Shown piece after piece: positions 3,971 through 63,879 of a stretch of DNA of 64,000 nt. A program made the translations under genes and the position numbers. Position 1 is the first letter of the stretch; each line of letters opens with the position of its first letter. Source of the DNA: Thermoanaerobaculia bacterium (GTDB lineage: Bacteria > Acidobacteriota > Thermoanaerobaculia > Gp7-AA8). The notes beneath the pieces are model-generated. The model worked only from the letters and a program-made list of their open reading frames with translations. It was not told the DNA's origin and ran no database searches. Location: positions 16,369-80,368 of the forward strand of contig JAXDGW010000047.1 of assembly GCA_034664845.1 (NCBI GenBank), in the 5' to 3' direction.

Positions 3971-6900
3971 TCACCGCTCCGGCCGGATCGCGGTCGCGGG
4001 AACCGGCTCACCGAAGAGGTATCCCTGCACGTCCTGACAGCCTTGCTCGCGCAGAAACTCGAGCTGGCGCTCCGTCTCGACGCCTTCCGCCGTCACGCGG
4101 AGACGGAGACCCCGGGCCATCCCGATGACGGCGGAGACGATGGCGCGGTCGGCGGCGCTTGCTTCGATCTCCTGCACGAACTCCTGATCGATCTTCACGC
4201 TGTCGATCGGAAAGCTGCGCAGGTAGTTGAGCGATGAGTGGCCGGTGCCGAAGTCGTCGATCGCGATCTGCACGCCCATTTCGCGCAGCTTGTGAAGTGT
4301 GACGATCGTACGGGCCGTGTTCTGCATCGCCAGACTCTCGGTGATCTCGAGCTCGAGATCGCCGGGCGCGAGGCCGGACAATTCGAGTGCCGAGGCAATC
4401 ACCTGCGGCAGATCGGAGTGCTGGAATTGCCGGGGCGAAAGATTGACGGCCATCCGAAAGCTCGATGAGCCGCGCGTCTGCCACGCTTTGGCCTGGCGGC
4501 AGGCTTCGCGCAAGACCCACTCCCCGATCGGCACGATCAAGCTCGTCTCCTCGGCGACCGGGATGAAGTCCTTCGGGCCGACGAGTCCGAACCCCGGCCT
4601 GTTCCAGCGCAGAAGCGCCTCGACGCCGGTGATTCGTCCGCTGGCGATGTTGATCTGCGGCTGGTAGTAGAGCTCCAACTCGCCGCGCTCGAGGGCATAG
4701 CGAAGATCGCTCTCGAGTGACAGGCGCTCCAGCGCGCGGCTGTTCATGGCCGGCGTGAACATCTGGTAGGCATTCCGACCGGCGTCTTTGGCGCGGTACA
4801 TGGCGTGGTCCGCATTCGCGAGCAGCGCTTCGGCCGTGTCGCCGTCGCTCGGGAAAAGTGCGATGCCGATGCTGGTCGTGAGAAACAGCTCGGTGCCGTC
4901 GATGCGCAGCGGCTGGGCCACGGTGTCGAGCACTTTCTGCGCGATCTTCGCGGCGTCGTTGCTCGTCTTGAGATCGGCCAGAAGGACGGTGAACTCGTCG
5001 CCGCCCATCCGCGCGACGGAATCCTCCTCGCGGAGAGCGCCCTGCAGCCGGATCGCGACCGCTTTCAGGAACTCGTCGCCGATCGAATGGCCGAGGGTGT
5101 CGTTGACGACCTTGAAGCGATCGAGATCGAGGAACATCACCGCCAGCGGATGCTTCAGGCGCCGCGCATGCGCGAGCGCGACGGTCAGACGGTCGCGAAA
5201 AAGGCGCCGGTTCGGCAGACCAGTCAGCGCATCGTGGTACGCCTGATACTCGATGTGCTCTTCGACTTGTTTGCGCTCGGTGACGTCGCGCGAAACGCCC
5301 ACGATCTCGCGGACTTCGCCCGTGATCCCGTCGCGCACGCTGCGGCTCGTCGTCTCGAACCAGACCAGCGAGCCATCCTTTTTCTCGACGCGATACGCAA
5401 ACGTCGTCGGCCCCGACTCGTGAATCAGCGTGGAGAGATGACGCACCTCATCGCGATCGGGCTCGAAAATGAAATCGAAGAAGAGCCGCCCGACCAGTTC
5501 GGCAGGCTCGTATCCGAGGAGGCGCCGGCAGGCATCGGATGCGTAAAGGAGGACGCCGCGGCTCGAGGTTCGCGAGATCATGTCGGTGGAGTTTTCGGCC
5601 ATGAGGCGATACCGCGCCTCGCTGTCGCGCAACGCCTCCTCGGCCATCCGGCGCTCGGTCACCTCGTTGTGCACCCCGATCGATCCGATGACGTTGCCGT
5701 CGACGTCCACCTGCGGCGCGCCGCCGATCTCGAGCCAGATCACCGTGCCGTCCTTGCGGCGGACGCGCACTTCGTACTGATCGGCGATCTTGCGAAGCCG
5801 CAGTCCTGTTTTCTCACGCATCACGGCCACGTCTTCCGGATAGGCCAGAAGCCGTTCGCCGGGCATTCCGATGAGCTCTTCGCGGCCGTATCCGACCATC
5901 TCGCAGAAGCGGTCATTGACGAACTGGAGCCGGCCTTCGATGTCTGCCTGCGCCAATCCCTCGCGCATCCTCTCGACCAGCAGGCGGTAGCGCTCCTCAC
6001 TCTCGCGCAGCGCGTTCTCGGTGAGCTTGCGATCGGTGATGTCGATGACGGTCCCTTCGAGGATATCGGGATCGCCCTCGATCAGATGAACGCTCTCGAC
6101 GAGCCAGCAAGGGCGGCCGTCCTTTCGGCGCAGCGAGATCTCGTGGCTGGTCATCATCCGCTCGCGGCGGAGCGTGCCGATGAATTCGTCGCGTTCCCCC
6201 GGCTCGAGGTAGAGGTCTCGGGCGGAATACTCCATCAGCTCTTCGCGTGAGGAATAGCCGAGGATCGTGGCCATCGCTTCGTTGCAATCGAGAATGCGTC
6301 CCTCGATCGTGTTGCGATAGACACCGGCGAGGTTGCGCTCGAACAGGAGGCGATGCTGCTGCTCGCTGCTGCGCAACGCTGCCTCGGTGCGATGGCGCTG
6401 AATGGCATTGACGAAGATCTCGCCGATGATGCGCAGGAGCGAGGCGGCGTCATCGCTCCAGGTTCTCCGCTCGGCCGAGGCGACGCCGAACGCACCGATG
6501 AAGACGTGGTTGTAGATCATCGGCACAATGGCCACGGAACGGTTGCCTGCGCGCTCGTATGCATTCCGGTCAGCCGAGGCATCGTCCGGAAGATCGTCGA
6601 CCGAGAGGGTCACCCGCTCGAGCTGTTTCAATTGCTGGGAGCTGAATGGAAAGGTCGAAAAGGAGACCGAGCCCCCAAGGCCGCGCGCGACGCTCGGATC
6701 GGCGTTCCACTCGTGCGCAAGAACCCCCGTTTCTCGATCGTCGTTGGCCATGTAGATGAAGGCGCGGTCGGCGCCGACAAATCGGCCCACGCCCTCCAGC
6801 GCCGCGGCGATTTCCCGCCCGAGGTCGGCGGCGGCAACGTTGATGAAGTTCGTGGAGATGCCGGAAATCAGCTTCTCAAACGCCAGACGGTGCTCCAGCA

Positions 6901-7000
6901 TCTCGTGCGCTGACCCGCCGTCCGGTTCCTTGACTGGAATCACTTCAGACAATCGACTCTCCCGAATGCATGTTCCGGATTGAAGTCGATACGTTAGCAC
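3971..7000 (-). CDS. GAF-PAS-PAS-PAS-GGDEF-EAL diguanylate cyclase/phosphodiesterase
   Basis: Intact GGDEF with RxxD I-site (REED), VEALLRW and DDFGTG, three PAS repeats ending DITDRK/EVTERR/DVTERK; start uncertain (GTG ~6943 plausible). Confidence 0.93.
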   Translation of the reverse strand: MLTYRLQSGTCIRESRLSEVIPVKEPDGGSAHEMLEHRLAFEKLISGISTNFINVAAADLGREIAAALEGVGRFVGADRAFIYMANDDRETGVLAHEWNADPSVARGLGGSVSFSTFPFSSQQLKQLERVTLSVDDLPDDASADRNAYERAGNRSVAIVPMIYNHVFIGAFGVASAERRTWSDDAASLLRIIGEIFVNAIQRHRTEAALRSSEQQHRLLFERNLAGVYRNTIEGRILDCNEAMATILGYSSREELMEYSARDLYLEPGERDEFIGTLRRERMMTSHEISLRRKDGRPCWLVESVHLIEGDPDILEGTVIDITDRKLTENALRESEERYRLLVERMREGLAQADIEGRLQFVNDRFCEMVGYGREELIGMPGERLLAYPEDVAVMREKTGLRLRKIADQYEVRVRRKDGTVIWLEIGGAPQVDVDGNVIGSIGVHNEVTERRMAEEALRDSEARYRLMAENSTDMISRTSSRGVLLYASDACRRLLGYEPAELVGRLFFDFIFEPDRDEVRHLSTLIHESGPTTFAYRVEKKDGSLVWFETTSRSVRDGITGEVREIVGVSRDVTERKQVEEHIEYQAYHDALTGLPNRRLFRDRLTVALAHARRLKHPLAVMFLDLDRFKVVNDTLGHSIGDEFLKAVAIRLQGALREEDSVARMGGDEFTVLLADLKTSNDAAKIAQKVLDTVAQPLRIDGTELFLTTSIGIALFPSDGDTAEALLANADHAMYRAKDAGRNAYQMFTPAMNSRALERLSLESDLRYALERGELELYYQPQINIASGRITGVEALLRWNRPGFGLVGPKDFIPVAEETSLIVPIGEWVLREACRQAKAWQTRGSSSFRMAVNLSPRQFQHSDLPQVIASALELSGLAPGDLELEITESLAMQNTARTIVTLHKLREMGVQIAIDDFGTGHSSLNYLRSFPIDSVKIDQEFVQEIEASAADRAIVSAVIGMARGLRLRVTAEGVETERQLEFLREQGCQDVQGYLFGEPVPATAIRPER

Positions 7001-8474: not shown

Positions 8475-9821
8475 TCAACGAATTGCAGCAGTCACGTCCC
8501 GGCAATCGGAACCGCCCAGCGTCCGCACCTCGATCGTGAAACGGTCCGCAACGATGCGGCCGGCGATCGGAGTGGTATTGCGAAGGAAGCGCGCCGCCAG
8601 CGCGCTGGCGTCGCCGGGAACCTCAATCGCAATCGAGCGGATCGTCTCCGTTGGCGTGGTGCCTCCGCCCAGCGCGCACTGGCTTTCGACGACACGGCAC
8701 GAAGTCCCCTGCACCATCTCGTCCGCGCGTCTGCGCAACACTTCCAGCGGCGTGGCCAGCATCCGGTAGATGGGGATCTCCGTCTCGTACCTGCCCGTCG
8801 CGAATGCGCGCAACGTCTCGGCGAGCACGGCGTACGACTCCTTGCCGGCACGCAGCGCGCGCATGAGCGGATGCTTGCGGCAACGGTTGATGATCTCTTC
8901 GGGACCCAGGATCAAACCGCCCTGCGTGGCGCCGATCAGTTTGTCGGTCGAGCAGGCGATGGCATCGACGCCGCTGGCGAGAAGCTCGCGGATCGTCGGT
9001 TGCCGCGAGAAACCGTACGGCGACAGATCGACCACCCTCCCGCTCCCCTCGTCGTAGAGCAACGGCAAGGCGTGGTCACGCGCGACGGCCACGAGTTGAT
9101 CGATCGAAGGCATTTCCGTGAAGCCGACGATCTCGAAATTCGAGCGATGAACGCGCAGGATGGCCGCCGTCTCGCTGGAGGCAGCCTCGTCGAAATCGGC
9201 AGCGTGCGTCCGGTTGGTCGTCCCCACTTCCCGCAACCGCGCTCCTCCCTGCTGAATCACATCGGGGACGCGGAACGAGCCGCCGATCTCGACCAGCTCG
9301 CCGCGCGAGACGATCACTTCGCGCCCCGAGGCAACGGCGGCGAGGAGGAGAAGCGTGCCGGCGGCGTTGTTGTTCGCCAGGATCGCCGATTCGCAGCCGA
9401 ACAGCGTGCGGCACAACGCCGTCAGATGCTCGTCGCGCCGCCCCCGCGATCCTTCCTCGACGTCGAATTCGAGGTTGGAGTAGTTGGTGGTGACGGCAGC
9501 GGCACGCGACCAGAGATCCGGATCGATGGGCGAGCGCCCAAGGTTCGTGTGGATGATGACGCCGGTGCCGTTGATCACGGGGCGAAGCGTCGATGCGGTC
9601 GCATTGGCAAGCCGCGCCCGAACGTCGCCGGTGGCGACGCTCTCATCATACGGAGCGCGATCGCGGCGAATCGTCTCGAGGTGGAGACATACGGCGTCTT
9701 TGACGCGCTCCCGTCCGAATTCTGCGACCGTCTCTTTCAACGCATCGCTGGAGAGAATCCGCTCGACGGACGGGATGCGGCGCAGCGCGGAATCTCGCGA
9801 GTCGGGAGTCGTTTTAGGCAC
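8475..9821 (-). CDS. selA: L-seryl-tRNA(Sec) selenium transferase
   Basis: INGTGVIIHTNLGRS, SNLEFD, SRGELVEIGGSFR, EVGTTNRT and PLP-lysine STDKLIG motifs. Confidence 0.95.
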   Translation of the reverse strand: MPKTTPDSRDSALRRIPSVERILSSDALKETVAEFGRERVKDAVCLHLETIRRDRAPYDESVATGDVRARLANATASTLRPVINGTGVIIHTNLGRSPIDPDLWSRAAAVTTNYSNLEFDVEEGSRGRRDEHLTALCRTLFGCESAILANNNAAGTLLLLAAVASGREVIVSRGELVEIGGSFRVPDVIQQGGARLREVGTTNRTHAADFDEAASSETAAILRVHRSNFEIVGFTEMPSIDQLVAVARDHALPLLYDEGSGRVVDLSPYGFSRQPTIRELLASGVDAIACSTDKLIGATQGGLILGPEEIINRCRKHPLMRALRAGKESYAVLAETLRAFATGRYETEIPIYRMLATPLEVLRRRADEMVQGTSCRVVESQCALGGGTTPTETIRSIAIEVPGDASALAARFLRNTTPIAGRIVADRFTIEVRTLGGSDCRDVTAAIR

Positions 9822-12866: not shown

Positions 12867-13091
12867 ATGAAGAAGACGACGATCTATCTTCCTGACGACC
12901 TGAAGAAACGATTGGAAGAGACAGCACGAACCACCGGCCGGCCGGAAGCGCAGGTGATCCGCGACGCGATCAGCGCGGCTACGCTCGAAGCTCTTTCTCC
13001 CACTCCGCGTGTTCCGTTGATGGAGCGTGGACTGGGAGACCCGACGATCGCTGAGAACGTCGATGCTCTGCTCGAAAGATTCGGCCGTTGA
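12867..13091 (+). CDS. CopG/ribbon-helix-helix antitoxin (VapB-type)
   Basis: MKKTTIYLPDDLK...EAQVIRDAI RHH pattern; overlaps the PIN toxin gene. Confidence 0.85.
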   Translation: MKKTTIYLPDDLKKRLEETARTTGRPEAQVIRDAISAATLEALSPTPRVPLMERGLGDPTIAENVDALLERFGR

Positions 13092-13507
13092 TTCTCCTCG
13101 ACACGAGCGGGATTCTGGCTGCGCTTTTCCCTGATCAGAATCGGCACCAGGAGTGTGCCGCGGCGCTACTAAAAACCACTCCGCCGCGGATCATGTCGCC
13201 GTTCGTTCTCGCGGAAGCCGGCTACCTGATCCAGAAGTTCGGCGGCGTCGACGCAGAGATTCTCTTCCTCGCCGAAATCGGCCGCCGCGCATACGAGCTG
13301 GCAACGTTCGATGAAGCGGACGTGGAAGGCGCCCGCCTTCTCGTCAATAAATACCGCAGCCTCGGCATCGGTCTGGCCGACGCGTCAATCGCCGTTCTCG
13401 CCGCCCGCTACGGCACCCTCGACGTACTCACGCTCGATGAACGCCACTTCCGGGCGATCCGCCCCGCGCCGAGGAAGAACTTCCGGATACTCCCGGCGGA
13501 TGCGTGA
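13088..13507 (+). CDS. vapC: PIN-domain toxin
   Basis: LLDTSG, LAE, GLADAS and TLDERHF acidic PIN motifs. Confidence 0.9.
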   Translation: MILLDTSGILAALFPDQNRHQECAAALLKTTPPRIMSPFVLAEAGYLIQKFGGVDAEILFLAEIGRRAYELATFDEADVEGARLLVNKYRSLGIGLADASIAVLAARYGTLDVLTLDERHFRAIRPAPRKNFRILPADA

Positions 13508-13514
13508 TTCGTTT

Positions 13515-13564
13515 TCACGCGGAGCCGCGGAGGGCGCAGAGGGAGAAGGTTCTCCTCCGCGTGA
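13515..13564. repeat. Inverted 9-mer repeat hairpin between convergent vapC genes
   Basis: TCACGCGGAG...CTCCGCGTGA with internal CGCGGAG/CGCAGAG units; a related arm lies at 11844-11872. Confidence 0.7.
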
Positions 13565-13570
13565 ACCAAT

Positions 13571-13987
13571 TCACCTCCAACTCACGACACGAATCCCCTC
13601 GAACCGCTTGAAATCGGTCTCGTTGAACGTGACCAGTGCCAAGCCGTGAACTCGCGCGATTGCCGCGATCTGGCCATCCGCGAACGGCGGCGTCTCGCCA
13701 CGAGATACAAGCCGAGCCCTCTCGATGGCATGCCACTCCGCAGCAGCGTGGTCATAGTCCAGGATTGGCATCGTCGGCAGAATGATTTCCTCGAGATAGC
13801 GCTCGATTGCGACTCGGCGGCGGGATGGGGGCATCCGCTCCACGCCGAATCGCACCTCGTGCCAGGCCACCGAGGGAATCGCGATCTCGTCTTCATACCG
13901 ACGGAAATTTCGAAGAACGATCTTCCCTGGTCTCAGGCGGACCGGTTCCGACAAGACGTTCGTGTCTAAGAGGTACTGGAGACTCAC
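13571..13987 (-). CDS. vapC: PIN-domain toxin
   Basis: YLLDTNVLSE, FADGQIAAIA and LVTFNETDF motifs. Confidence 0.92.
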   Translation of the reverse strand: MSLQYLLDTNVLSEPVRLRPGKIVLRNFRRYEDEIAIPSVAWHEVRFGVERMPPSRRRVAIERYLEEIILPTMPILDYDHAAAEWHAIERARLVSRGETPPFADGQIAAIARVHGLALVTFNETDFKRFEGIRVVSWR

Positions 13988-14265
13988 AGGACGGTTCCCC
14001 GCCCAGGCGACTGATCTCTCACGCCGGCAAATACCTCGTCGGGATCGATGTCCAGACTGCCCAGCCCGATCTCAGCAGCGAGAGCATCCCATGCCTCAGA
14101 GAAACGCTTGGATCGTGAGACGAGGCGATCGTATTGCTTGCGCCCGATCAACACCGCCACCGGCTCGCCGCGCCGCGTGAGCTCAACGGCCTTCCCCGAC
14201 TCCGCCTCCCGAACGAGCCTCGGCAGACTGCTGCGCGCCTCTGCGATGGAATGTTGCTCACTCAT
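13984..14265 (-). CDS. Phd/YefM family antitoxin
   Basis: SIAEARSSLPRLVREAESGKAVELTRRGEPVAVL; overlaps vapC. Confidence 0.92.
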   Translation of the reverse strand: MSEQHSIAEARSSLPRLVREAESGKAVELTRRGEPVAVLIGRKQYDRLVSRSKRFSEAWDALAAEIGLGSLDIDPDEVFAGVRDQSPGRGTVL

Positions 14266-46906: not shown

Positions 46907-49051
46907 ATGCGCCGATCGGAGCAGCCTCACGTGGATGGAAGTGATCTGACAGCACACCCAGCTGCGAGCTCACTGCGGAGTTGGTCGGTGCGTGCGTCGT
47001 CGGCGATCTTCGGGCTTTGTATTGCCGTTGGGGCGTCGCCACGCCTCGCGCTTCGAGCGCGTCCGGAGGAGATGCTCTCCGCACTCAAGTTGGCGGGCTA
47101 CAGTCCGAAAGGGCTGATCCTTCAGTTCATCCTCGCGGTGCTGCTGACAGCGTTGTTCGCGATTGCAGGCGAGCGGCTGGCGCGGCTTCTTGCGTCGTAT
47201 CGATGGTCTGCGATCAGCTACAGCGCGGCACTTCTGCTGGCGCCGGTCGCCTTGATGAGCTTCGGGAACGTCAAGCACGTGCTGCTGCTTGGCGCCGTCG
47301 CGGCCGTCATCGTGGTCCTGCGCAAACGCGATCCTCACTTCTCGCAGGGTGACGTCGTTCTGATCCCGGTGTTCCTGGCCTGCTACATGGCCTTTCTCGA
47401 CCTCGACTTCGGCCACACGCCCATCGCGACATTTCTTCGGGCGGCGATCGCGGTCTTTGCCATCCGGCTGATCGTCCCGTTGTCAGACGCGTTCCTCGTT
47501 TCTCCACTAGCTCTGGCAGCGGAGATCGGTTTGCACACGCAGGCGATTGGCGCGGTCATCGCGTTGATCGTGATCTTCGTGACGCCGTTTCTTCTCGCGA
47601 GGCTGAGACGCCCGTTGCCGCGCAGGATCATCTATCCGATCGTGGTCTTCCTCTATCCGCTGGCCGCGATCAGGCTCCCTTCACCGGTCACCTCCGATTT
47701 TTTCGAAGACGGCCACGATGTGCCGGTGGCGGCGGAGATGTTGCGCGGCGAGAGGCCGTATGCGGACATCATCCCGACTCACGGCCTCATCAGCGATGGT
47801 GCGCTCTACGTCGGGGCCGCGAAGATCGGGCTCACCTCTCTCCCGCAATGGCTGAACACGCGGCTCGTGGCCGGGTTCCTGAGCGGGGTCGCGATCTATT
47901 GCCTCGCCCTGGCGGTCACGGGAAGCGCGAACATGGCGCTCCTCGCGGCGTTCCTGACGTTCTCGCTCTACCCAGGCTCCATGATCTGGTTGCGGCCATC
48001 GGCGGCGATCTTCGCCCTCGCCGCGACGATTGCCGGAACGCGCCTGCGCTCGCGGCGCTGGTTCGTCGCCGCGGGGGCGCTGGTCGTCATCGCCTATCTC
48101 GTCAGCATCGACTTCGGGCTTTACTCGGCGATCGTCGCCCTGTTCGCGGCGTTTCGCGCACGCGCGCTGCGCGCACTCGGAATCGGCGTGGCTGCCGCCG
48201 CGGTGCCGGTGCTGCTGATTTTCGCGGCGTTCGGATTCGCGCTCGACTTCATCCGCGTCAACGTCACCGAGATCCTCGGCAGTCACTCTGCCTACTTCGC
48301 CCATCCGATGGAGCTTCCTGAACCGCTGCGGTCACCGTCGCTGATCCACCATCTCGCCAACGGTCTGATGCCGATCACATGGTGCGTAGCGCTGATCACG
48401 ACTTGCGTGGCGCTGGCTCGGTCACCACTGCGAGCGCGGCGCAGCGACGGCCCATGGCTGATCGGCGTCTGGATGGTCGTCGCCGCTGCGTCGTTCATCG
48501 AGCGCAACAATTCCTATTACTTCATCGTGGGGACGCCATTCCTCTTCGTAACCATCGGGACGCTGCGCCGGACGTCGCGAACGCTGGCGACGGTGTTGAT
48601 GGTCGCCGTTATCCTGCTGGCCGAGCCGTTCCGGCATGTGATTACGGTGATCCCCGAACTGCGCAGCGCAAAGCAGGGCCCGATGTTCACGCCTACCGTC
48701 AGCACGTCGATTCGCGCTGCGCAGCAATTCGTCGCCACGCTGAAACCGGATGACACGTTCGTGGACTTTTCAAACTCGGCGTTGCTGTATTCGCTCGTGC
48801 ATCGCGACTGTCCGTTGCGTCAGATCGAGGTCGCGAATTACCAGACCGAGGAAGGGCAGCGGGAAGTCATCGCGCGGATTCAAAACAACCGTCATATTCG
48901 CGCCGCGCTGATCGTGTTTCCCGGATCGATCCAGGACGTCGACATGATTCCGAACGCGGAGAGAGCGCCGAAAGTCTGGGCATTCCTCCAAAAGAACTTC
49001 ACGCCTGCATTCGGACAGGACGGCGTGGTGTTCTGGCGCCGGAATCCCTGA
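46907..49051 (+). CDS. Polytopic membrane protein, possible GT-C-like
   Basis: Many TM helices; DFFEDGH...GERPYADIIPTHG luminal motif; start uncertain. Confidence 0.6.
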   Translation: MRRSEQPHVDGSDLTAHPAASSLRSWSVRASSAIFGLCIAVGASPRLALRARPEEMLSALKLAGYSPKGLILQFILAVLLTALFAIAGERLARLLASYRWSAISYSAALLLAPVALMSFGNVKHVLLLGAVAAVIVVLRKRDPHFSQGDVVLIPVFLACYMAFLDLDFGHTPIATFLRAAIAVFAIRLIVPLSDAFLVSPLALAAEIGLHTQAIGAVIALIVIFVTPFLLARLRRPLPRRIIYPIVVFLYPLAAIRLPSPVTSDFFEDGHDVPVAAEMLRGERPYADIIPTHGLISDGALYVGAAKIGLTSLPQWLNTRLVAGFLSGVAIYCLALAVTGSANMALLAAFLTFSLYPGSMIWLRPSAAIFALAATIAGTRLRSRRWFVAAGALVVIAYLVSIDFGLYSAIVALFAAFRARALRALGIGVAAAAVPVLLIFAAFGFALDFIRVNVTEILGSHSAYFAHPMELPEPLRSPSLIHHLANGLMPITWCVALITTCVALARSPLRARRSDGPWLIGVWMVVAAASFIERNNSYYFIVGTPFLFVTIGTLRRTSRTLATVLMVAVILLAEPFRHVITVIPELRSAKQGPMFTPTVSTSIRAAQQFVATLKPDDTFVDFSNSALLYSLVHRDCPLRQIEVANYQTEEGQREVIARIQNNRHIRAALIVFPGSIQDVDMIPNAERAPKVWAFLQKNFTPAFGQDGVVFWRRNP

Positions 49052-49063
49052 GCGAGCGATTTC

Positions 49064-50713
49064 TTACGACGCTGGGAGCTCGCGCCGGGCCGTGCGGCCG
49101 ATCACCAGCGTCTGATCGTCCTTCTGCGGCGCTTCCGCGACAAAGGCATCGACTGCGTTGGCGATGGCATCGCGAATGCCGCCGGCGGACGCGCCCGTGT
49201 GTACGCCGAGGAGCTCCTCGAATGCTTCGTTCCCCCACTCGTCGCCGGCCATGTTCTCCGCTTCGTTGATGCCGTCGCTGTAAAGCACGACGGCGGAGCC
49301 GGAAGCGAACGGACGCGTCTGCGTCATGTACTTGGAAGTGCCGAGGATGCCGATCGGGAGGCCGTGCGACCGAAGCTGCTCGATACGATCGCCAGTGAGG
49401 ACGTAGCAGGGATTGTGGCCTGCATTGACGAACTGGATCGTCTCCGCTTCCGGATCGATCGTGACCATGATCATGGTGATGAACTTGTTCTCGGCAGACC
49501 AACTGTGGATGTGGCGATTGAGCTCGGTGGCGATGTCGCCGAGCTCGCGCCCCTCGGCGAAAAGAAGCTGGACAGCCGCATGAAACGCCGAAACCAGCAG
49601 CGCCGCCGGCATCGACTTGCCCGAAACGTCGGCCACGATCGTCGTCAACGTTCCCTCGCGCTGAAAGAAGGCGTGATAGTCGCCGCCGACCTGCTTGGCC
49701 GGACGGGATAGCGCGGCGAGATCGATCCCTTCGATGGTCGGAATCGACTTCGGAAGAATGTCGCGCTGGATGGTGGCGGCGAGATCGAGCTCCCGCTGCA
49801 TGGCCTGTTTCTCGAGCGCTTCCTTGTGCAGACGCGCGTTCTCGAGGGCGATGGCAACCTGATTGGCGAAGAGCGAAAGGAGCCGCAACTCGTTCGCTTC
49901 GAACGCGCCGACGTCGCCTTCACGGGTCTCGCGATCACCCGCGGCCAGCACACCGATCACCGCGTTGTTGCCTTTGATCGGGACGGCAACCGTGGCGATG
50001 CAACCGGGGAAAATGCACTCGGAGGCGTCTTCGAATGTGAGGGCCTCACCGGCGGCAACGACGCGGTCGGTGATCTCGTCATCGAGAAAATCGGAGCGCG
50101 TATCGCCGAACGAGCGGTAGACGCGGAACTTGTCGCCGTCGCGCAGAAAAAGCGCGGCGCGCCGGGCGTTGATCAGCGAAATCATCCGGAAGAGGATCTC
50201 GTCTGCAAGCGCATCAATGTTCAGCGTGCCGGCGATGGAGAGGCCGATGTCGTAAAGCGACTCCAGCTCCCAGAGTCGGTACTTGAGCTGGAAGTCGCCC
50301 TCGCGCATCTCCTGCGCCAGGCGATGGTTGTTCAAAACCGAGCCGGCAAACGCCCCTGCAGCGTGCAGCATTTGCAGATCCTCATCGGAAGCTGCGTCGC
50401 CGATGAGCGCAACGATTCCGAAGTGATCGCGGATCGTCCGAATCGGGATCAAATGCCTCGGCGGCGGATCGAGCAGCGGACGTGCGAACTCGATCTCCTC
50501 ATCTTCAAGGATGTCAGGACCGATGCAGCTGTCGGACTTCGCCGCCAACCGCACGGGTCCGCGCGCATCTCGCAGATAGACGGCGCTGACGTCGAACGGC
50601 GTGTGCTTGGTGAAGGCGTCGAGGATCAGCGACCCATGCGACGAAAGCGCGGCGCGCTCGAGTTGCTGGAGATCGTGCAGAAACTCCGCGAACTGGTGGA
50701 CTAGGGGAGACAT
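49064..50713 (-). CDS. GAF-containing SpoIIE/RsbU-type PP2C phosphatase
   Basis: VGGDY, ADVSGK, NAGH, LYSDG and DDQT motifs. Confidence 0.92.
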   Translation of the reverse strand: MSPLVHQFAEFLHDLQQLERAALSSHGSLILDAFTKHTPFDVSAVYLRDARGPVRLAAKSDSCIGPDILEDEEIEFARPLLDPPPRHLIPIRTIRDHFGIVALIGDAASDEDLQMLHAAGAFAGSVLNNHRLAQEMREGDFQLKYRLWELESLYDIGLSIAGTLNIDALADEILFRMISLINARRAALFLRDGDKFRVYRSFGDTRSDFLDDEITDRVVAAGEALTFEDASECIFPGCIATVAVPIKGNNAVIGVLAAGDRETREGDVGAFEANELRLLSLFANQVAIALENARLHKEALEKQAMQRELDLAATIQRDILPKSIPTIEGIDLAALSRPAKQVGGDYHAFFQREGTLTTIVADVSGKSMPAALLVSAFHAAVQLLFAEGRELGDIATELNRHIHSWSAENKFITMIMVTIDPEAETIQFVNAGHNPCYVLTGDRIEQLRSHGLPIGILGTSKYMTQTRPFASGSAVVLYSDGINEAENMAGDEWGNEAFEELLGVHTGASAGGIRDAIANAVDAFVAEAPQKDDQTLVIGRTARRELPAS

Positions 50714-50735
50714 GCGGGAGACGGAAGAATAGCAG

Positions 50736-50822
50736 TTGCGAAGCGCGGTCGCGGGGTTACGAGGTCGCGAGGTTGCGCGGGCGGCACAGCGAGACCGCGT
50801 AACCTCGGAACCCCGCTACCTC
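50736..50822. repeat. Inverted octamer microsatellite (GAGGTTGC-type)
   Basis: gcggtcgc ggggttac gaggtcgc gaggttgc...gagaccgc gtaacctc ggaacccc gctacctc. Confidence 0.75.
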
Positions 50823-51171
50823 ACAATCCCAGCTCCTTGATTGCCGTCTCCTCGTTATCGAAAATCTTCGCGTAATTCGCAAGGCCCATGATCTGGAAGG
50901 TCTTGTGGATGACGGGAGTCAGGCAGCAGAAGGCGATGGTGCCGCCTTTATCGATCATCTTCTCGATGATCTCGATGAGGATGCTGATGCCGATGGAGTT
51001 GACGATTTTCGTATCGCGGAGGTTGAGCAGGAGCGTGCGCACGTTGTCCTCCATCAACTCGTAGGCACGGTTGGCGATCTCTTCGCCGCCTACATTGTTG
51101 ATGTAGCCCTTCGTGTAGAGCACCGCCCCGTTCGGCCTGCGGTCGACTGCGACTCTTAGTTCCTCAGTCAT
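50821..51171 (-). CDS. STAS anti-anti-sigma factor (RsbV/SpoIIAA-like)
   Basis: LLLNLRDTKIVNSIGISIL with the phospho-Ser position; FQIMGL. Confidence 0.9.
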   Translation of the reverse strand: MTEELRVAVDRRPNGAVLYTKGYINNVGGEEIANRAYELMEDNVRTLLLNLRDTKIVNSIGISILIEIIEKMIDKGGTIAFCCLTPVIHKTFQIMGLANYAKIFDNEETAIKELGL

Positions 51172-51607
51172 GATTCTTCTTCTCGTATTTGACCATGTGG
51201 ATTGTGGTTCCCCCACCCGACGAAGTCGAGATGCTGACCTCGTCCATATGCGCCTCGATCAGTTGCAGTCCTCTACCGCGTTTGTGAGCCGCGCCGGCGG
51301 CGGGCCGGCGGGATCGGGCCTCATCAGGATCGAATCCGCGGCCGTGATCGGTGATCCAGACATCGATCCTGCTGCCATCGCCCTCGGAAGTGCCCACGAA
51401 TCTTAAATAGATGCGGTTGTCTTCGCAACCGGAGTGCTCGCGAGCGTTGATGCACGCCTCGATGATCGCATGAGTCATCTCATCGATCTTCTCGGAGCTC
51501 ATTCCAAGCTCGCGGGCGAGATTGCCTGCCGCACGCGCGGCGGCGATCTCGATATCCGCGACCATCGGAAGAGTCAGCTCCATCTGCCGCTCGGCGGTTC
51601 TGGTCAT
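51164..51607 (-). CDS. RsbW/SpoIIAB-like anti-sigma serine kinase
   Basis: EACINAREH, DHGRGF and RGRGLQLIEAHMDEV motifs. Confidence 0.9.
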   Translation of the reverse strand: MTRTAERQMELTLPMVADIEIAAARAAGNLARELGMSSEKIDEMTHAIIEACINAREHSGCEDNRIYLRFVGTSEGDGSRIDVWITDHGRGFDPDEARSRRPAAGAAHKRGRGLQLIEAHMDEVSISTSSGGGTTIHMVKYEKKNHD

Positions 51608-51632
51608 TTCACGGGGATCCTGTGGCCGATCG

Positions 51633-51791
51633 TCAAAAGGAAAGGAGCAACGCAACCGCGGACTTGATCCAGTCGGGGATGCCGCCCAGCTGATCGATCG
51701 CAAGCAGGGCGAAGGTGTTGACCGCCAGCAACATAGGAAGCGCGTACTGAACGGAGATGGCGTTGCTGCGGGTATCGGCGATGCTTTTCAT
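51633..51791 (-). CDS. 52-aa small hydrophobic protein (absent from ORF track)
   Basis: MKSIADTRSNAISVQYALPMLLAVNTFALLAIDQLGGIPDWIKSAVALLLSF*; G-rich RBS (GAGGGGGGACACC) before the ATG. Confidence 0.7.
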   Translation of the reverse strand: MKSIADTRSNAISVQYALPMLLAVNTFALLAIDQLGGIPDWIKSAVALLLSF

Positions 51792-51824
51792 GGTGTCCCC
51801 CCTCGTGTGTCGGGACCACCCTTG

Positions 51825-51840
51825 AGCAACGCGACTGCCA
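51825..51840 (-). promoter_or_regulatory. Sigma-54 -24/-12 promoter
   Basis: Minus strand TGGCAGTCGCGTTGCT has exact GG-N10-GC spacing and lies next to a sigma-54 activator gene. Confidence 0.75.
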
Positions 51841-52002
51841 CGCCCGATTTGCCTGCTCCACTCTCTCTAAGCCTCTGATACCGCGAAGTTTACACGAGAA
51901 CATGAGTGAGATGTGACGGAGTGCGCAACTGGGTCAAATGGCCACATAGAGAAGGTTTCAAACTGTGCGTTCAGTGTAAACCACTGAGCTGAAAGCGGTT
52001 TA

Positions 52003-53535
52003 CTAGTGAATGTCCCAAGATTCCACATATGCCCTCAATTGGGACAACGCCTCTCGCATGCGGTAGAGAGTCTTGCGGTCGATGCCCAGGATACGCGCTG
52101 CTTTCGACATGTTTCCCTTCGTGTGCGAGAGGACGCGAGCAACGTAGCGCCGCTGCAAATCGTCGAGAGATGGAAAGTCGGTCATGAGCTCCACGCCACC
52201 AGAGCCGGTGGTTGATTCCGGAAGGGCAAGGTCGCCGGGATCGATCACCGGGTCGGTCGTCAGCGCCAGCGAGCCCTCGATCAGATTCTCCAGCTCCCGA
52301 ACGTTCCCGGGAAACGGATAGCGCATCAGTTTCTGCAATGCTTCCTGCGAGATCCGGACGTCGTGCAGCCCCTCGCGCTTCCCGTACTTGTCGAGAAAAA
52401 AGCGCACGAGTTTCGGAATGTCTTCTTTGCGGTCGCGCAGCGGCGGCAGAACGATCTCGACGACTTTGAGCCGGTAGTAGAGGTCCTGACGAAACTCGAC
52501 CTTCTCGATCATCTGCTCGAGATCGCGGTGCGTGGCGGAAAGGATGCGCACGTCGATGGGGATGCGGCGCCTTCCGCCGAGCTTCTCGACCTCGCGCTCC
52601 TGCAGCACGCGCAGAAGCTTGGCCTGCAACGCCAGCGGGATGTCGCCCACCTCGTCCAGAAAGATCGTCCCGCCTTTGGCGAGCTCGAACTTGCCGGGCC
52701 GCGCATCCACTCCGGTGGCCACGCCGCGCTCGATCCCGAAAAGCTCGGATTCGAGCAGGGTTTCCGGCAACGCCGCGCAATTGATCGCGACGAACGGACC
52801 GTCTTTGCGCGGCGAGTTGCCGTGGATGAGCCGCGCCACCATCTCCTTGCCGGTTCCCGACTCGCCGCGAATCAGCACGCTGGCCTGCGAATCCGCCACG
52901 CGCGCGACGAGGTCGATGACCCGCTGCATCTTGGGAGAGTCGCCGATCATGAGCCGGTCGTTGTAGTCGCGCAGCATCCGCTGTTTGAGGTTGCGGTTTT
53001 CGTCTTCGAGCGTCGCGCGCAGAACGGAGAGTTTGTGAAAATTGCGGGCGTTGTCGATGGCCGCTCCGCCGATAGCTGCCAGCGACGCGAGGAAGCGGAG
53101 ATCGTCCTCGACGAAGCTGCCGCTCTTGGCGCCGCGCTCCTCTTTGCCTCCGACGCCGATCATGCCGATGATCGACTCGCCGGAGATCATCGGGGCCAGG
53201 AGCAGGTCTTTGCCTGTTCCGCCGAGAAACTTGGAGACGGCGACGGACATCGGTTCGCGCGAGGCCAGTACCTGCTTGACGGGCGGCTCGGCCAGGATGG
53301 CATTCGCGGGCGTCGGGATCTCAAGCTCGAACGTGAAGATCTGCTGGACGTTGAGCTTTTCATCGAGAGAAAAAACGAACCCCGCCATCGCATCGAGCAC
53401 GGCCACGGCGCGGTGCATGAGCTCTTCGATGAGCTCCCCTTCCGGACGGAGAGTGTTCAGCGCACGGCCGACATCGTAAAGCGCCTCCAGCTGGAGGAGC
53501 TTGCGGCGAAGTTCGAAGTTTGATTGCTGGGGCAT
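52003..53535 (-). CDS. GAF-AAA+-Fis sigma-54 enhancer-binding protein
   Basis: GESGTGKE, ESELFG..GVATGV, FLDEVG, FPGNVREL and HTH AARILGIDRKTLYR. Confidence 0.93.
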   Translation of the reverse strand: MPQQSNFELRRKLLQLEALYDVGRALNTLRPEGELIEELMHRAVAVLDAMAGFVFSLDEKLNVQQIFTFELEIPTPANAILAEPPVKQVLASREPMSVAVSKFLGGTGKDLLLAPMISGESIIGMIGVGGKEERGAKSGSFVEDDLRFLASLAAIGGAAIDNARNFHKLSVLRATLEDENRNLKQRMLRDYNDRLMIGDSPKMQRVIDLVARVADSQASVLIRGESGTGKEMVARLIHGNSPRKDGPFVAINCAALPETLLESELFGIERGVATGVDARPGKFELAKGGTIFLDEVGDIPLALQAKLLRVLQEREVEKLGGRRRIPIDVRILSATHRDLEQMIEKVEFRQDLYYRLKVVEIVLPPLRDRKEDIPKLVRFFLDKYGKREGLHDVRISQEALQKLMRYPFPGNVRELENLIEGSLALTTDPVIDPGDLALPESTTGSGGVELMTDFPSLDDLQRRYVARVLSHTKGNMSKAARILGIDRKTLYRMREALSQLRAYVESWDIH

Positions 53536-53539
53536 GGTG

Positions 53540-53713
53540 TGGGTTGCTGGGTTGCTGGGTTGCTGGGTTGCTGGGTGGTTACGTTTGGTGAGTCGTTGGG
53601 TTGCCGGGATACTTTCTCGCGGGGTTACGATTTCTACTTTTGAGTATCCAGACAGCGCGGAAGCTTGGCAACCCGGAAACTCAGCAACCCAGTAACCAAG
53701 CAACTCAGCAACC
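53540..53713. repeat. Inverted octamer microsatellite (GGGTTGCT)n...(AGCAACCC)n
   Basis: Four perfect GGGTTGCT units, with complementary degenerate units at ~53668-53713. Confidence 0.88.
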
Positions 53714-53721
53714 GGTTCTCC

Positions 53722-54108
53722 TCAATCCCTCCCCACCGCCTTCCGACATTCTCCGAGCAGAAAATCGCAGTTCCAGGTTGCGTAGAACGCGCGATCCATC
53801 GCGTAGATTCTGACGAACAGTGTCGCAGCCTGATCGAAACGGCCACGCTTCATCTCGGTGCGGGCGAGGAAATAGATCGATCGGATGAGGCGCGGCTCCT
53901 CCACGTTCTTTTCCACGATGCCGCGGAACCCCGCCTCGGCCTCCGCGAACTGGCGCTGTTGATACGCGCAGAGCGCCTTGCCGTAGTCGTCCGAGGCGCC
54001 GCAGGTGGATGGGGGCTTCGCGTTCGCTGTCGTGGCGAGGACAGCGACGAGTAAGAGAGCGCAGCGCACGGTCGTCAGTTTAGAACCTTTTCGCGGAGAC
54101 GCGGACAA
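53722..54108 (-). CDS. Small exported TPR-like protein
   Basis: Hydrophobic leader and TPR-like helices; true start probably ~54069. Confidence 0.65.
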   Translation of the reverse strand: MSASPRKGSKLTTVRCALLLVAVLATTANAKPPSTCGASDDYGKALCAYQQRQFAEAEAGFRGIVEKNVEEPRLIRSIYFLARTEMKRGRFDQAATLFVRIYAMDRAFYATWNCDFLLGECRKAVGRD

Positions 54109-54946: not shown

Positions 54947-56329
54947 ATGGTCTTCTTCAATTACGCGACGATGCAGATGGCGGCGAAGATCGTTTACTAC
55001 GGTCCGGGCCTCTGTGGGAAGACGACAAACCTGCACCACATCTACGCCAAGACCTCGCCGCAGAGCCGCGGGGAGATGGTGAGCCTGGAGACGGAAACAG
55101 ACCGAACGCTCTTTTTTGATTTGCTGCCGATCGACGTCGGCGTCATCGGCGGATTCAAGACCCGCCTTCAGCTCTACACGATTCCTGGTCAGGTCTTCTA
55201 CAACACGACGCGCAAGCTCGTCCTCAAGGGCGTCGACGGTCTGGTCTTCGTTGCCGACTCGCAGGTGGCGATGCTCGATGCGAATCTGGAGAGCTTCAAG
55301 AACCTTCGCGAAAACCTCGGCGAGATCGGTCTCTCCATCGATGAGATCCCGCTCGTTCTTCAAGTCAACAAGCGCGACCTCCCCAACATCGCGGCGGCCG
55401 AGACCGTCGTCGATGTCATCGATCCGGAGCGGAAGTACGACTGGGTCGAGGCGGTGGCATCGCGCGGCGACGGCGTTTTCGAGACGCTGAAAGTGATCTC
55501 GAAACTGACGCTGCGGACGTTGCGGCGGCGCATGACCGGCGAAGAACCGGTTCGCCCGCCGTCGCGCCGATCGGCGGCGGAGCCCTCCAATTTCCGCGTT
55601 CGCGACGAGGGCGTCATCCCCTCACAAACCATCGCAGCGCCGGCGAAGCCTTCCACGTCCAAAGTTTCCACCGCGCCGATTCCCGCATTCGGGGGGGCCA
55701 CCACGGCAGCCGCTCCGCCGGCTCACGTCCCCGAACCGCTGCTCACTCCGCCGCCGATCATCGAGCCGCCCATCGAGCCAGTGGAAGAGATCTCCGTAGA
55801 CGACGAGATCAACGTCAAAGCCCCCCCAAGCATCGACCACATCGACGACATCGCGATTCCGGACACCGCGCCTGAGCCGCCGGTTCAGATCCCCGAACCG
55901 GAGCCACAGCGCCGCGTCGAACCGCCGCCGATGCCGCCCGAGCCGGAAATCGATTTCGGGCAGGCCGAGAAGCACGCCAAAGCGGCGCCCGAGGTCAAGC
56001 ATGTGAAGGTCAGGTCGTCGGTCGACATCATGGCCGAGCTCGAATCGCTCCGGAAACGCGCCACGCAGTCGACTCCCAAACCGGCCTCGAAAAAAGAGAC
56101 GTCGCCGCTCGACGCGCTGCGAAATCCGCCCAAACCGAAGCGCGACATCCACCGCACCGTCACCCTCCCGACGCCTCCCGGCACTCTGCCGAAGTCGAAA
56201 CGCTTGCGCATTACGGTATCCTTTGAAAATGACGGAGGCGTCGTTCAGTCGCAGGAAGAGTCGCTGGACCTCGGCGAGACAAACGACGTCCAGTCACTTT
56301 CGGTCAATCTGAAATTCGAAGATCTCTAA
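54947..56329 (+). CDS. mglA: MglA-family small GTPase with a long Pro-rich C-terminal extension
   Basis: KIVYYGPGLCGKTTNL, DRTLFFD, LYTIPGQVFY and NKRDL motifs. Confidence 0.85.
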   Translation: MVFFNYATMQMAAKIVYYGPGLCGKTTNLHHIYAKTSPQSRGEMVSLETETDRTLFFDLLPIDVGVIGGFKTRLQLYTIPGQVFYNTTRKLVLKGVDGLVFVADSQVAMLDANLESFKNLRENLGEIGLSIDEIPLVLQVNKRDLPNIAAAETVVDVIDPERKYDWVEAVASRGDGVFETLKVISKLTLRTLRRRMTGEEPVRPPSRRSAAEPSNFRVRDEGVIPSQTIAAPAKPSTSKVSTAPIPAFGGATTAAAPPAHVPEPLLTPPPIIEPPIEPVEEISVDDEINVKAPPSIDHIDDIAIPDTAPEPPVQIPEPEPQRRVEPPPMPPEPEIDFGQAEKHAKAAPEVKHVKVRSSVDIMAELESLRKRATQSTPKPASKKETSPLDALRNPPKPKRDIHRTVTLPTPPGTLPKSKRLRITVSFENDGGVVQSQEESLDLGETNDVQSLSVNLKFEDL

Positions 56330-63597: not shown

Positions 63598-63879
63598 ATG
63601 ACCAAAGACATCACAGTGCAGGAGTTGCAGGAACACTTCGCGGATCACATGGAGGAAGTGCGGCGTGGCATGACGTTGCGCCTGATCGATGGCGGGAACC
63701 CTGTTGCCAAGATTTTGCCGAACGAAACGAAGCCGGCCGAAACGAAGCCGGGCGAGACTCCCGAGGACATGATCTATCGTCGTGCGGTTGGCTCCTTCGC
63801 CGATTTCGTCCTGCCGCCTCCAATTGAGTCAGATGTCGACATCGTCGACTTCCTTCGTGAGGACCGAGACTCTCGGTGA
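63598..63879 (+). CDS. Phd/YefM family antitoxin
   Basis: ITVQELQEHFADHMEEVRRG...GNPVAKILP...LREDR. Confidence 0.8.
   Translation: MTKDITVQELQEHFADHMEEVRRGMTLRLIDGGNPVAKILPNETKPAETKPGETPEDMIYRRAVGSFADFVLPPPIESDVDIVDFLREDRDSR

Follow-up and report, generated by a model that had tools for sequence, protein, structure and literature searches.

A GVATGV-loop activator gene and a predicted sigma-54 promoter precede a conserved partner-switching operon in Thermoanaerobaculia

Gene Content of the Locus

The DNA analysed here is a 64,000-nt stretch (hereafter the window) from a contig of a Thermoanaerobaculia bacterium, a high-GC DNA with a guanine plus cytosine (GC) content of about 0.62. A locus of five minus-strand genes occupies positions 49064–53535 (Table 1). 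The first gene encodes an enhancer-binding protein (EBP) of the sigma-54 activator type. It is followed by a predicted sigma-54-type promoter and by an operon encoding a small hydrophobic protein (pep52), a serine kinase resembling RsbW and SpoIIAB, a STAS-domain protein and a PPM/PP2C phosphatase. A sequence-only reading of this DNA had listed the same parts, in this order and on a single strand, and all of them were recovered at its coordinates from the list of open reading frames (ORFs) and from Pfam.

Table 1. Coordinates of the genes and sequence features of the locus. Distances such as -124 are relative to the assumed transcription start; aa, amino acids; HTH, helix-turn-helix; PWM, position weight matrix score.
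Feature	Position	Strand	Basis
Phosphatase, 549 aa: GAF-like domain, helix, GAF, helix, PPM/PP2C	49064..50713	minus	Pfam, model
STAS-to-phosphatase spacer, with long hairpin and -10-like box before the phosphatase start	50714..50820	minus	folding, motif count
STAS-domain antagonist, 116 aa	50821..51171	minus	STAS, Pfam PF01740, E 9.6e-12
Ser59 of the STAS protein, predicted phosphorylation site	50995-50997	minus	SpoIIAA alignment
RsbW/SpoIIAB-like serine kinase (GHKL), 147 aa	51164..51607	minus	HATPase_c_2 (E 1.1e-19)
pep52, 52-aa hydrophobic protein, first operon gene	51633..51791	minus	tblastn, alignment, codon positions
Sigma-54-type -24/-12 promoter TGGCAGTCGCGTTGCT	51825..51840	minus	motif search, spacer alignment
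Conserved GTGTAAAC block and ATCAGAGGCTTAG (51867-51879, IHF-like), between dyad and promoter	51867..51895	minus	spacer alignment columns 117-148
Intergenic dyad TGTGGCCATTTGACCCA, candidate upstream activator site at about -124	51930..51946	minus	PWM 17.7-18.1
Dyad TGTGGAATCTTGGGACA (TGT-N11-ACA) in the last EBP codons, candidate upstream activator site at about -205	52011..52027	minus	PWM 17.2
Further dyad slot TGTCCCAATTGAGGGCA at about -224, weak in the window, strong in most relatives	52030..52046	minus	PWM <10 (window copy)
EBP, GAF-AAA+-HTH, 510 aa	52003..53535 (stop included)	minus	Pfam
L1-loop GVATGV, residues 271-276, replacing GAFTGA	52708..52725	minus	alignment, DNA read
Small TPR protein gene upstream of the EBP gene, same strand	53722..54108	minus	weak TPR matches; conserved upstream of EBP

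A phosphatase alignment of 20 relatives (A1) was used to scan one genome per species. The scan returned 216 pattern matches, of which 151 encode a relative, and the loci studied here are the best 80 of these 151. They belong to Thermoanaerobaculia or Acidobacteriota metagenome-assembled genomes (MAGs) and are 58–92% identical to the query; every close relative carries the name Thermoanaerobaculia or Acidobacteriota in its source.

The EBP matched GAF_3 at residues 34–162 (E 4.8e-10), Sigma54_activat (PF00158) at residues 196–361 (E 2.2e-68), AAA_lid_14, and HTH_8 at residues 457–492 (E 4.4e-10), a Fis-type HTH. Its nearest solved relatives were ZraR, NifA and NtrC-family proteins (E 6e-81 to 4e-76), and the orthologues in the related loci were 75–96% identical to it. 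As in sigma-54 activators, an AAA+ domain with both Walker motifs is present (GESGTGKE and FLDEVGD, which align with those of ZraR, NifA and an NtrC-family protein), and candidate dyads lie near the gene of a protein with a C-terminal HTH. The GAFTGA motif of loop L1 is replaced by GVATGV. An AlphaFold2 model of the EBP was unusable, with a mean predicted local distance difference test (pLDDT) score of 52, and of less than 50 in the AAA+ part.

The first gene of the operon, pep52, matched no Pfam or NCBIfam family, and its only neighbours in Atlas were unnamed small proteins at 0.79–0.84, below the meaningful level. Its alignment shows a conserved core, and the differences at the three codon positions (0.256/0.127/0.496, n = 71) fit a coding sequence; on these two grounds pep52 is to be regarded as a real gene.

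The nearest solved structures to the kinase were RsbW (6m36, E 1e-8) and SpoIIAB. The ATP-binding motifs EACINAREH, DHGRGF and KRGRGL, which we take to be the N, G1 and G2 boxes of its HATPase_c_2 fold, were conserved in all 23 aligned sequences. A longer kinase ORF was rejected, as the conserved start MTxTAERQ puts the ATG at 51607. The ATG of the STAS gene overlaps the kinase stop codon (ATGACTGA). The STAS protein was closest to SpoIIAA among solved structures (E 6e-8), and its Ser59, aligned to the first S of DSSG, was invariant in 18 of 18 sequences; this is presumably the position of the phosphorylated serine in SpoIIAA. A single STAS domain with a conserved serine is the make-up of an anti-sigma antagonist; on TIGR00377 the protein scored 41.3, under the cut-off of 53.45.

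Relatives of the kinase were also found in other architectures. In Blastocatellia and other Acidobacteria (P0392–P0417), a kinase domain with 33–42% identity forms the C-terminus of proteins of 488–813 aa. Five of the long relatives were scanned (721–813 aa), and all combined an N-terminal P-loop/STAND-like region with a C-terminal HATPase_c_2; their N-termini weakly matched AAA_16, ATPase_2, NACHT or nSTAND P-loop NTPases. We know of no other STAND-like sensor fused to an RsbW-like kinase. One 289-aa relative was a kinase-STAS fusion.

In the phosphatase, Pfam recognised GAF_3 at residues 165–292 (E 7.9e-17) and SpoIIE at residues 353–540 (E 3.6e-41). GGD345, D362, D480 and D532–D533 were invariant in 20 of 20 sequences, and the metal-binding aspartates are presumably among them. 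The AlphaFold2 model (mean pLDDT 77) consisted of a small alpha/beta domain (1–105), a long helix (110–162), the GAF domain, a second long helix (273–319) and the PPM domain. With Foldseek, the closest solved fold to the PPM part was the SiaA PP2C domain (6k4e, E 2.7e-13), and RssB was also matched; the N-terminal half aligned with the tandem GAFs of PDE5A and PDE2A over approximately 360 columns. This suggests a tandem-GAF-like layout at the level of the predicted structure; by sequence profiles, residues 1–135 were scored as a GAF with hhalign probabilities of only 17% and 9%. A PPM domain with its aspartates, preceded by a sensor and a helical linker, is the layout given for RsbU-type phosphatases, including the tandem-GAF protein RsbZ, in the part of PMC12143880 that deals with it.

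A long hairpin is predicted for the spacer between the STAS and phosphatase genes of the window (-45.4 kcal/mol, z -2.48), and 4 of 200 shuffles did as well. In six loci it measured 36–168 nt, and several loci (L001, L015, L019) carried different palindromes. Of 78 loci, 43 had a TGnTA[TG][TCA]CT box, TGnTAT(T/C)CT-like, 3–18 nt ahead of the phosphatase start. Box and hairpin may act as an internal promoter or as an attenuator and in this way free the phosphatase from the sigma-54 transcript.

Control Region of the Operon

The promoter element TGGCAGTCGCGTTGCT is one mismatch off what we take to be the sigma-54 consensus. Considered in the window alone the motif was not significant: it was the only match at one mismatch or less where 1.32 were expected, and 77 of 100 shuffles of the window contained at least one match. 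What makes the promoter convincing in spite of this is its conservation across loci. The spacer between the EBP gene and the small ORF was extracted from the 68 loci in which both the EBP end and the small ORF could be placed, and was 217–224 nt long in 62 of them. TGGCA-N6-TTGC was present in 64 of these spacers and TGGCG-N6-TTGC in the other four. The GG and GC elements, kept in 68 of 68, bear out the sigma-54 promoter of the sequence-only reading. The start of the motif was 52 nt before the end of the pep52 ATG in 53 of the 64 exact matches. Over the 80 loci (1.12 Mb, both strands) TGGC[AG]-N6-TTGC matched 83 times, and 70 of these matches were at the promoter spot. Among the other 13, one was at the same place in locus L079 and 12 were scattered in coding DNA. 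Within 8 kb on either side, the promoter was the only conserved motif of its type in the 80 loci.

In L079 the sigma-54 motif (position ~6908) lies 269 nt before the kinase gene, and tblastn gave no small-ORF match there; pep52 may have diverged or been lost in this locus.

Upstream of the promoter, the alignment of the spacers revealed further conserved elements. Their positions, and those of the dyads inside the EBP gene, assume that transcription would start about 12 nt after the GC element, which puts the dyads at -124, -205 and -224 and the IHF-like element at -59. The intergenic dyad has the consensus TGTGGCAAAATGCCACA (spacer alignment columns 68–84), with the outer TG and CA kept in 65–69 of 69 rows. 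A position weight matrix (PWM) built from it was used to find copies inside the EBP gene. In 62 of 69 loci a dyad scoring at least 10 fell within the final 48 nt of the EBP gene, compared with 0 of 1,360 control windows from elsewhere in this gene. In the relatives this dyad occupies one of two fixed positions, and the best-scoring copy was in the slot at -224 in 50 of 69 loci. The last EBP codons keep A/T endings (CAA, TCT, ATT) in a genome with a GC content at third codon positions of about 0.8, which suggests that, at the end of the gene, the DNA is constrained in addition to the protein. Between the intergenic dyad and the promoter, ATCAGAGGCTTAG resembles what we take to be the IHF consensus, WATCARNNNNTTR. 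The arrangement of dyads, IHF-like element and promoter reads as the usual layout of an enhancer-dependent promoter, and this is the main argument that the adjacent EBP probably serves this promoter. A hairpin hiding the ribosome site in the 5' untranslated region was also considered and was unsupported (-6 kcal/mol, z -0.47).

Conservation of the Gene Order

All the results rest on sequence, and the synteny sample comes from MAGs of a single class of uncultured soil Acidobacteria. The gene order recurred in about 95% of the testable related Thermoanaerobaculia loci. Counts were made with the phosphatase as anchor and were restricted to loci with enough upstream DNA. Upstream of the phosphatase, the STAS gene was present in 71 of 74 loci, the kinase gene in 71 of 73, pep52 in 68 of 71 (by tblastn) and the EBP gene in 66 of 67. 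The flanks also showed the same order in most of the loci that reached them, with genes for a TPR protein, a DUF2520 protein, a small GTPase and an SLT-LysM protein on one side and for an enoyl-CoA hydratase on the other.

The GVATGV Loop of the Activator

The sequence-only reading had overlooked the missing GAFTGA motif, which bears directly on work with sigma-54. GVATGV aligned column for column with the corresponding motif of ZraR, NifA and an NtrC-family protein. The loop has an alanine in place of the phenylalanine, with the loop length, the threonine and both glycines kept. It was invariant in the EBP alignment (A2) and was found in 66 of 66 matches from the window and the loci. Among the 122 relatives in which the motif region was found, a set with three EBPs whose GAF domains were only 32–36% identical, 121 had GVATGV; one protein had GMTTGV.

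Published views conflict on whether such a loop works with sigma-54. In the comparative survey of PMC3162934, the GAFTGA motif is the means used to discard non-activators, and TyrR, DhaR and HupR are given as sigma-70-dependent homologues with defective motifs. The corresponding passage of the review PMC7175178 states that most mutants in GAFTGA fail to activate. A full-text literature search for GVATGV gave one relevant match, PMC4641369, part of which describes the Desulfovibrio vulgaris protein DVUA0100: it has the same GVATGV loop and was predicted to be still activating on the basis of co-located sigma-54 promoters. Our EBP shares with DVUA0100 both the loop and the neighbouring predicted sigma-54 promoters; it differs in that the N-terminal region of DVUA0100 is its own and is not annotated there as a GAF, that its targets are type III secretion genes and that its activity is a prediction (PMC4641369). 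For sigma-54 in Thermoanaerobaculia, the literature search found only one passing mention.

With the EBP family described here, GVATGV occurs beside a conserved -24/-12 promoter a second, independent time. This brings modest support to the activity of the loop, and GVATGV may well still work with sigma-54. The locus is a natural test case for GVATGV against GAFTGA, offering a single activator and a single promoter in about 70 natural variants. Should the activator work, genome surveys would have to amend the rule by which they filter sigma-54 activators; should it not, some other explanation would be needed for the conserved -24/-12 promoter.

A Model of the Signalling Unit

We propose, with a probability of about 0.55, that the locus encodes a two-layer signalling unit of the Thermoanaerobaculia, in which the EBP and sigma-54 would switch on a phospho-switch operon whose output lies elsewhere. 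In the first layer, a promoter upstream of its gene would drive expression of the GAF-regulated EBP, in many species probably along with that of the small TPR protein. The EBP would bind the TGT-N11-ACA dyads, one at about -124 and the others at about -205/-224, where they fall within the end of the EBP gene itself. A DNA-bending protein at about -59 would probably help it to activate the sigma-54 RNA polymerase at the -24/-12 element. In the second layer, the transcript would encode pep52, the RsbW-like kinase and the STAS protein, the last two being translationally coupled, and the phosphatase would be produced by read-through and possibly also from its own -10-like box. The kinase is predicted to phosphorylate Ser59 of the STAS protein. 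The phosphatase, gated by its own GAF sensor through the helical linker, would remove this phosphate. Most likely, the switch would act on a sigma or non-sigma protein encoded elsewhere, either through the STAS protein in its unphosphorylated form or through the kinase that it has released. Examples of STAS proteins with non-sigma outputs are SypA, RbaV and HmpV, named in PMC10120452. Partner switches without a sigma factor are common and their outputs are mostly unknown. Here, the operon consists of the switch under one clean promoter with mapped candidate enhancer sites, an arrangement in which cause and effect should be easy to separate with a reporter.

Several observations weigh against this model. 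The legend of Figure 3 in PMC3162934 states that the phenylalanine of GAFTGA is replaceable only by tyrosine, with "other replacements inactive". No rpoN gene was found in the window. The sequence-only reading had proposed synteny as a check; the order is indeed conserved within the class, but the conserved synteny is general within this one class and is not an independent recurrence, and as the flanking genes are conserved too it says little about functional coupling. The phosphatase, in addition, had other upstream neighbours in 3 of 74 loci (L018, L033 and L022, with a histidine kinase, a winged-helix protein and a Ser/Thr kinase instead), and in L066 and L070 a membrane protein gene and a Ser/Thr kinase gene part it from the STAS gene by 2.9–3.8 kb. 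Being unlinked in 5 of 74 loci, the phosphatase is not an obligate member of the operon.

In all five of the unlinked loci a Ser/Thr protein kinase gene adjoins the phosphatase gene, which hints at a second substrate or input for the phosphatase.

Alternative Readings

The output of the switch could be a sigma factor, with the kinase sequestering either a distant SigB/F-type factor or sigma-54 itself; the latter would create a self-regulating loop like that of the sigB operon. The families and structures closest to the kinase are indeed RsbW and SpoIIAB. In Pseudomonas fluorescens, moreover, loss of a STAS-paired PP2C-like phosphatase raised the expression of genes controlled by RpoN and EBPs, and RpoN was raised as a possible target in the part of PMC10621929 concerned. 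The kinase, however, scored far under the curated RsbW/SpoIIAB equivalog cut-offs (56.2 against 145 bits, 46.6 against 135 and 46.0 against 155). For an RsbW or SpoIIAB protein one would expect the gene of the cognate sigma factor close by. A scan of 65 distinct window ORFs detected no Sigma70 or Sigma54 domain, short or unscanned ORFs lying outside the scan; the absence of a sigma factor from the window, claimed by the sequence-only reading, stands to this extent. We regard an anti-sigma role of the kinase as unlikely.

A second alternative concerns the activator, which could be an EBP-like protein that is not a sigma-54 activator. It would bind the dyads independently of sigma-54 or as a repressor, like TyrR, HupR or VpsR, and another EBP would serve the promoter. 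The GVATGV loop is the main argument for this, together with the verdict on non-tyrosine replacements and the sigma-70 dependence of TyrR, DhaR and HupR in the sections of PMC3162934 quoted above. Against it, the variant loop keeps its length, threonine and glycines and, being invariant, shows no decay. The sole conserved -24/-12 motif within 8 kb on either side directly follows the EBP gene, and the dyads are at typical enhancer positions. GVATGV also occurs beside predicted sigma-54 promoters in another phylum, according to the part of PMC4641369 on DVUA0100. We consider it quite unlikely that the protein is a non-activator.

The switch could also feed back on the EBP, as the sequence-only reading had suggested. 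The RsbW-like GHKL protein or the STAS protein would bind the EBP as an anti-activator, the phosphatase and the STAS protein would relieve this inhibition, and the operon would be self-gated. No sigma domain was seen in the 65 window ORFs, and in 66 of 67 testable loci the operon directly follows the EBP gene. A precedent by analogy is given in PMC12998190, where the GHKL domain of NifL binds the AAA+ domain of the GAF-type EBP NifA. Other results speak against feedback. A fusion of an RsbW-like domain to a sigma-54 activator was not found, as 0 of the 27 longer kinase relatives had PF00158, and the literature search found no RsbW/STAS switch acting on an EBP. Switches without an adjacent sigma factor act on other targets, according to the part of PMC10120452 already cited. 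The co-variation of the EBP GAF with the kinase proved to be an artefact: in a mirror-tree comparison the partial r was 0.41 for this pair, and 0.41 for the EBP GAF with the second GAF (GAF2) of the phosphatase. Although 0 of 2,000 permutations reached these values, the signals were rejected as rate-class artefacts because an unrelated, rate-matched neighbour, the Na/Ca exchanger, gave 0.52 and 0.61 with the same partners (25 taxa). A complex prediction for the EBP (A2) and the kinase (A3), run without controls, gave a score of 0.00 against a threshold mark of 0.32 and weighs neither way. Feedback on the EBP appears improbable.

A wider version, in which the whole RsbW/STAS/PP2C switch has been rewired to the sigma-54 machinery, seems to us just as doubtful. 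In that case, the kinase would hold the GVATGV activator or sigma-54, the dephosphorylated STAS protein would release it, and the operon would control itself. If true, this would be the first serine-phosphorylation partner switch gating enhancer-dependent transcription, and it might explain the non-canonical sigma-54 contact loop of the EBP family.

Finally, the sequence-only reading had pointed to a GAF module shared by the EBP and the phosphatase. The homology itself is confirmed: the EBP GAF and the phosphatase GAF2 aligned by BLASTP with 23% identity over 179 residues (E 8e-11), and profile–profile comparison gave a probability of 98.1% (E 1.3e-13, 159 columns). As a specific link between the two proteins it failed. 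EBP residues 1–190 were searched against 1.84 billion representatives, and 1,789 clusters were obtained at E<=0.001 and 381 at E<=1e-10. At the same database size, the GAF2 of the neighbouring phosphatase scored 37.2 bits (E 2.9e-4), compared with 78–88 bits for the GAFs of more distant EBPs; the GAF2 of an unrelated GAF-GAF-SpoIIE protein scored 81.4 bits and a GAF-cyclase protein 94.2 bits (two GAF stretches, 55.9 and 36.9). The 1,009-aa GAF-PAS-GGDEF-EAL protein of the window (3971–7000), unrelated in sequence, scored 2.8 bits. Pfam was run on 24 of the 150 GAF matches listed and identified multi-GAF histidine kinases, GAF-repeat-only proteins, a phosphatase, a cyclase and EBPs. The N-terminal helix motif quoted in the sequence-only reading was also present in many unrelated GAF proteins, with alignments starting at query residues 3–11. 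The similarity is generic and therefore gives no grounds for supposing that the two GAFs share a ligand or form a heterodimer. That the EBP GAF and the phosphatase GAF2 sense one signal or pair with each other, the other proposal of that reading, is very unlikely, for although the modules are homologous, preceding helix included, and the two proteins are encoded side by side in most loci, the common stretches are the GAF_3 profile from end to end, many unrelated GAFs score higher and the phosphatase is unlinked in five loci.

Comparison with Known Systems

The two-layer unit would be a new arrangement of known parts rather than a system of a new kind. All of its components fall into known families, partner switches lacking a sigma factor are well known, and Vibrio already provides an activator-induced locus that encodes a STAS switch as well. 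What is new is an operon made of only the switch and one small protein, the placing of this operon under a sigma-54-type promoter whose enhancer dyads extend into the activator gene, and an activator family with an invariant GVATGV loop.

In Bacillus, RsbU/RsbV/RsbW form the SigB switch and SpoIIE/SpoIIAA/SpoIIAB the SigF switch. These switches share with the present operon the GHKL serine kinase, the STAS protein with its phospho-serine, the PPM phosphatase and the coupling of the kinase and antagonist genes. They differ in that here the operon and the window hold no sigma gene, that a sigma-54-type promoter and an EBP would drive the operon instead of the regulated sigma factor, that the kinase gene precedes that of the antagonist, and that the scores are below the equivalog cut-offs. 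The phosphatase resembles RsbZ of the SigB pathway of Clostridioides difficile, which has N-terminal tandem GAFs, a helical linker and a PPM domain (PMC12143880, in part), at the level of the predicted structure; here, the first domain is a small GAF-like fold that sequence profiles barely recognise.

The NifL-NifA and PspA-PspF pairs are comparable in that an EBP is controlled by a stoichiometric partner, the GHKL domain of NifL holding the AAA+ domain of NifA (PMC12998190). NifL differs in being a PAS-containing homologue of histidine kinases without kinase action and without a STAS partner. Pseudomonas SiaABCD and PFLU1583/1584 are likewise modules of a PP2C protein and its partners whose outputs are non-classical: a diguanylate cyclase is bound by SiaC (PMC8457831, in part) and mutations in PFLU1583/4 raise RpoN-EBP-controlled genes (PMC10621929, in part). 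Their sensor domains and partners differ from those found here, and a sigma-54 promoter or an adjacent EBP is not described in the parts of these sources at hand.

Vibrio fischeri has another locus of this sort, syp. The activator SypG is sigma-54-dependent. It turns on a locus with a STAS protein (SypA) and its kinase/phosphatase, and the target of the STAS protein is not a sigma factor (PMC10120452, in part). SypG is a response regulator and not a GAF protein, the kinase and the phosphatase are fused in SypE, and syp encodes a polysaccharide machine. In the present locus the EBP lacks a receiver domain, the kinase and the phosphatase are two distinct proteins, and the operon contains no polysaccharide genes.

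Other Features of the Window

Rfam gave no match at gathering scores in the window, and no tRNA gene was found there. A gene for SelA, the selenocysteine synthase, is located at 8475–9821 (E 1.5e-115), and on this ground the organism probably makes selenoproteins. Toxin–antitoxin-type genes for two PIN-domain proteins and for a Phd/YefM antitoxin occupy 13088–14265; near the end of the window (63598–63879) Phd/YefM was matched again, weakly.

Upstream of the EBP gene, the TPR gene is possibly co-transcribed with it. The spacer between the two contains two inverted arrays of 8-mers, TGGGTTGC repeated 4.6 times and GCAACCCA repeated 5.8 times, at 53540–53576 and 53668–53713. In 38 relatives the extracted stretch of this spacer varied from 12 to 366 nt, and the arrays therefore look like a lineage-specific insertion or a hairpin-forming repeat. 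Farther upstream, the conserved small GTPase gene (54962–56329) encodes a proline-rich C-terminal extension of about 260 aa. The protein had no Pfam match and a weak match to the NCBIfam model small_GTP; we presume that its N-terminus is MglA-like.

On the other side of the locus, between the phosphatase and enoyl-CoA hydratase genes, a gene at 46907–49051 encodes a 714-aa multi-pass membrane protein that belongs to no Pfam family. Among the 80 loci it was present only in the window, L003 and L009, and it is a lineage-specific insertion beside the operon.

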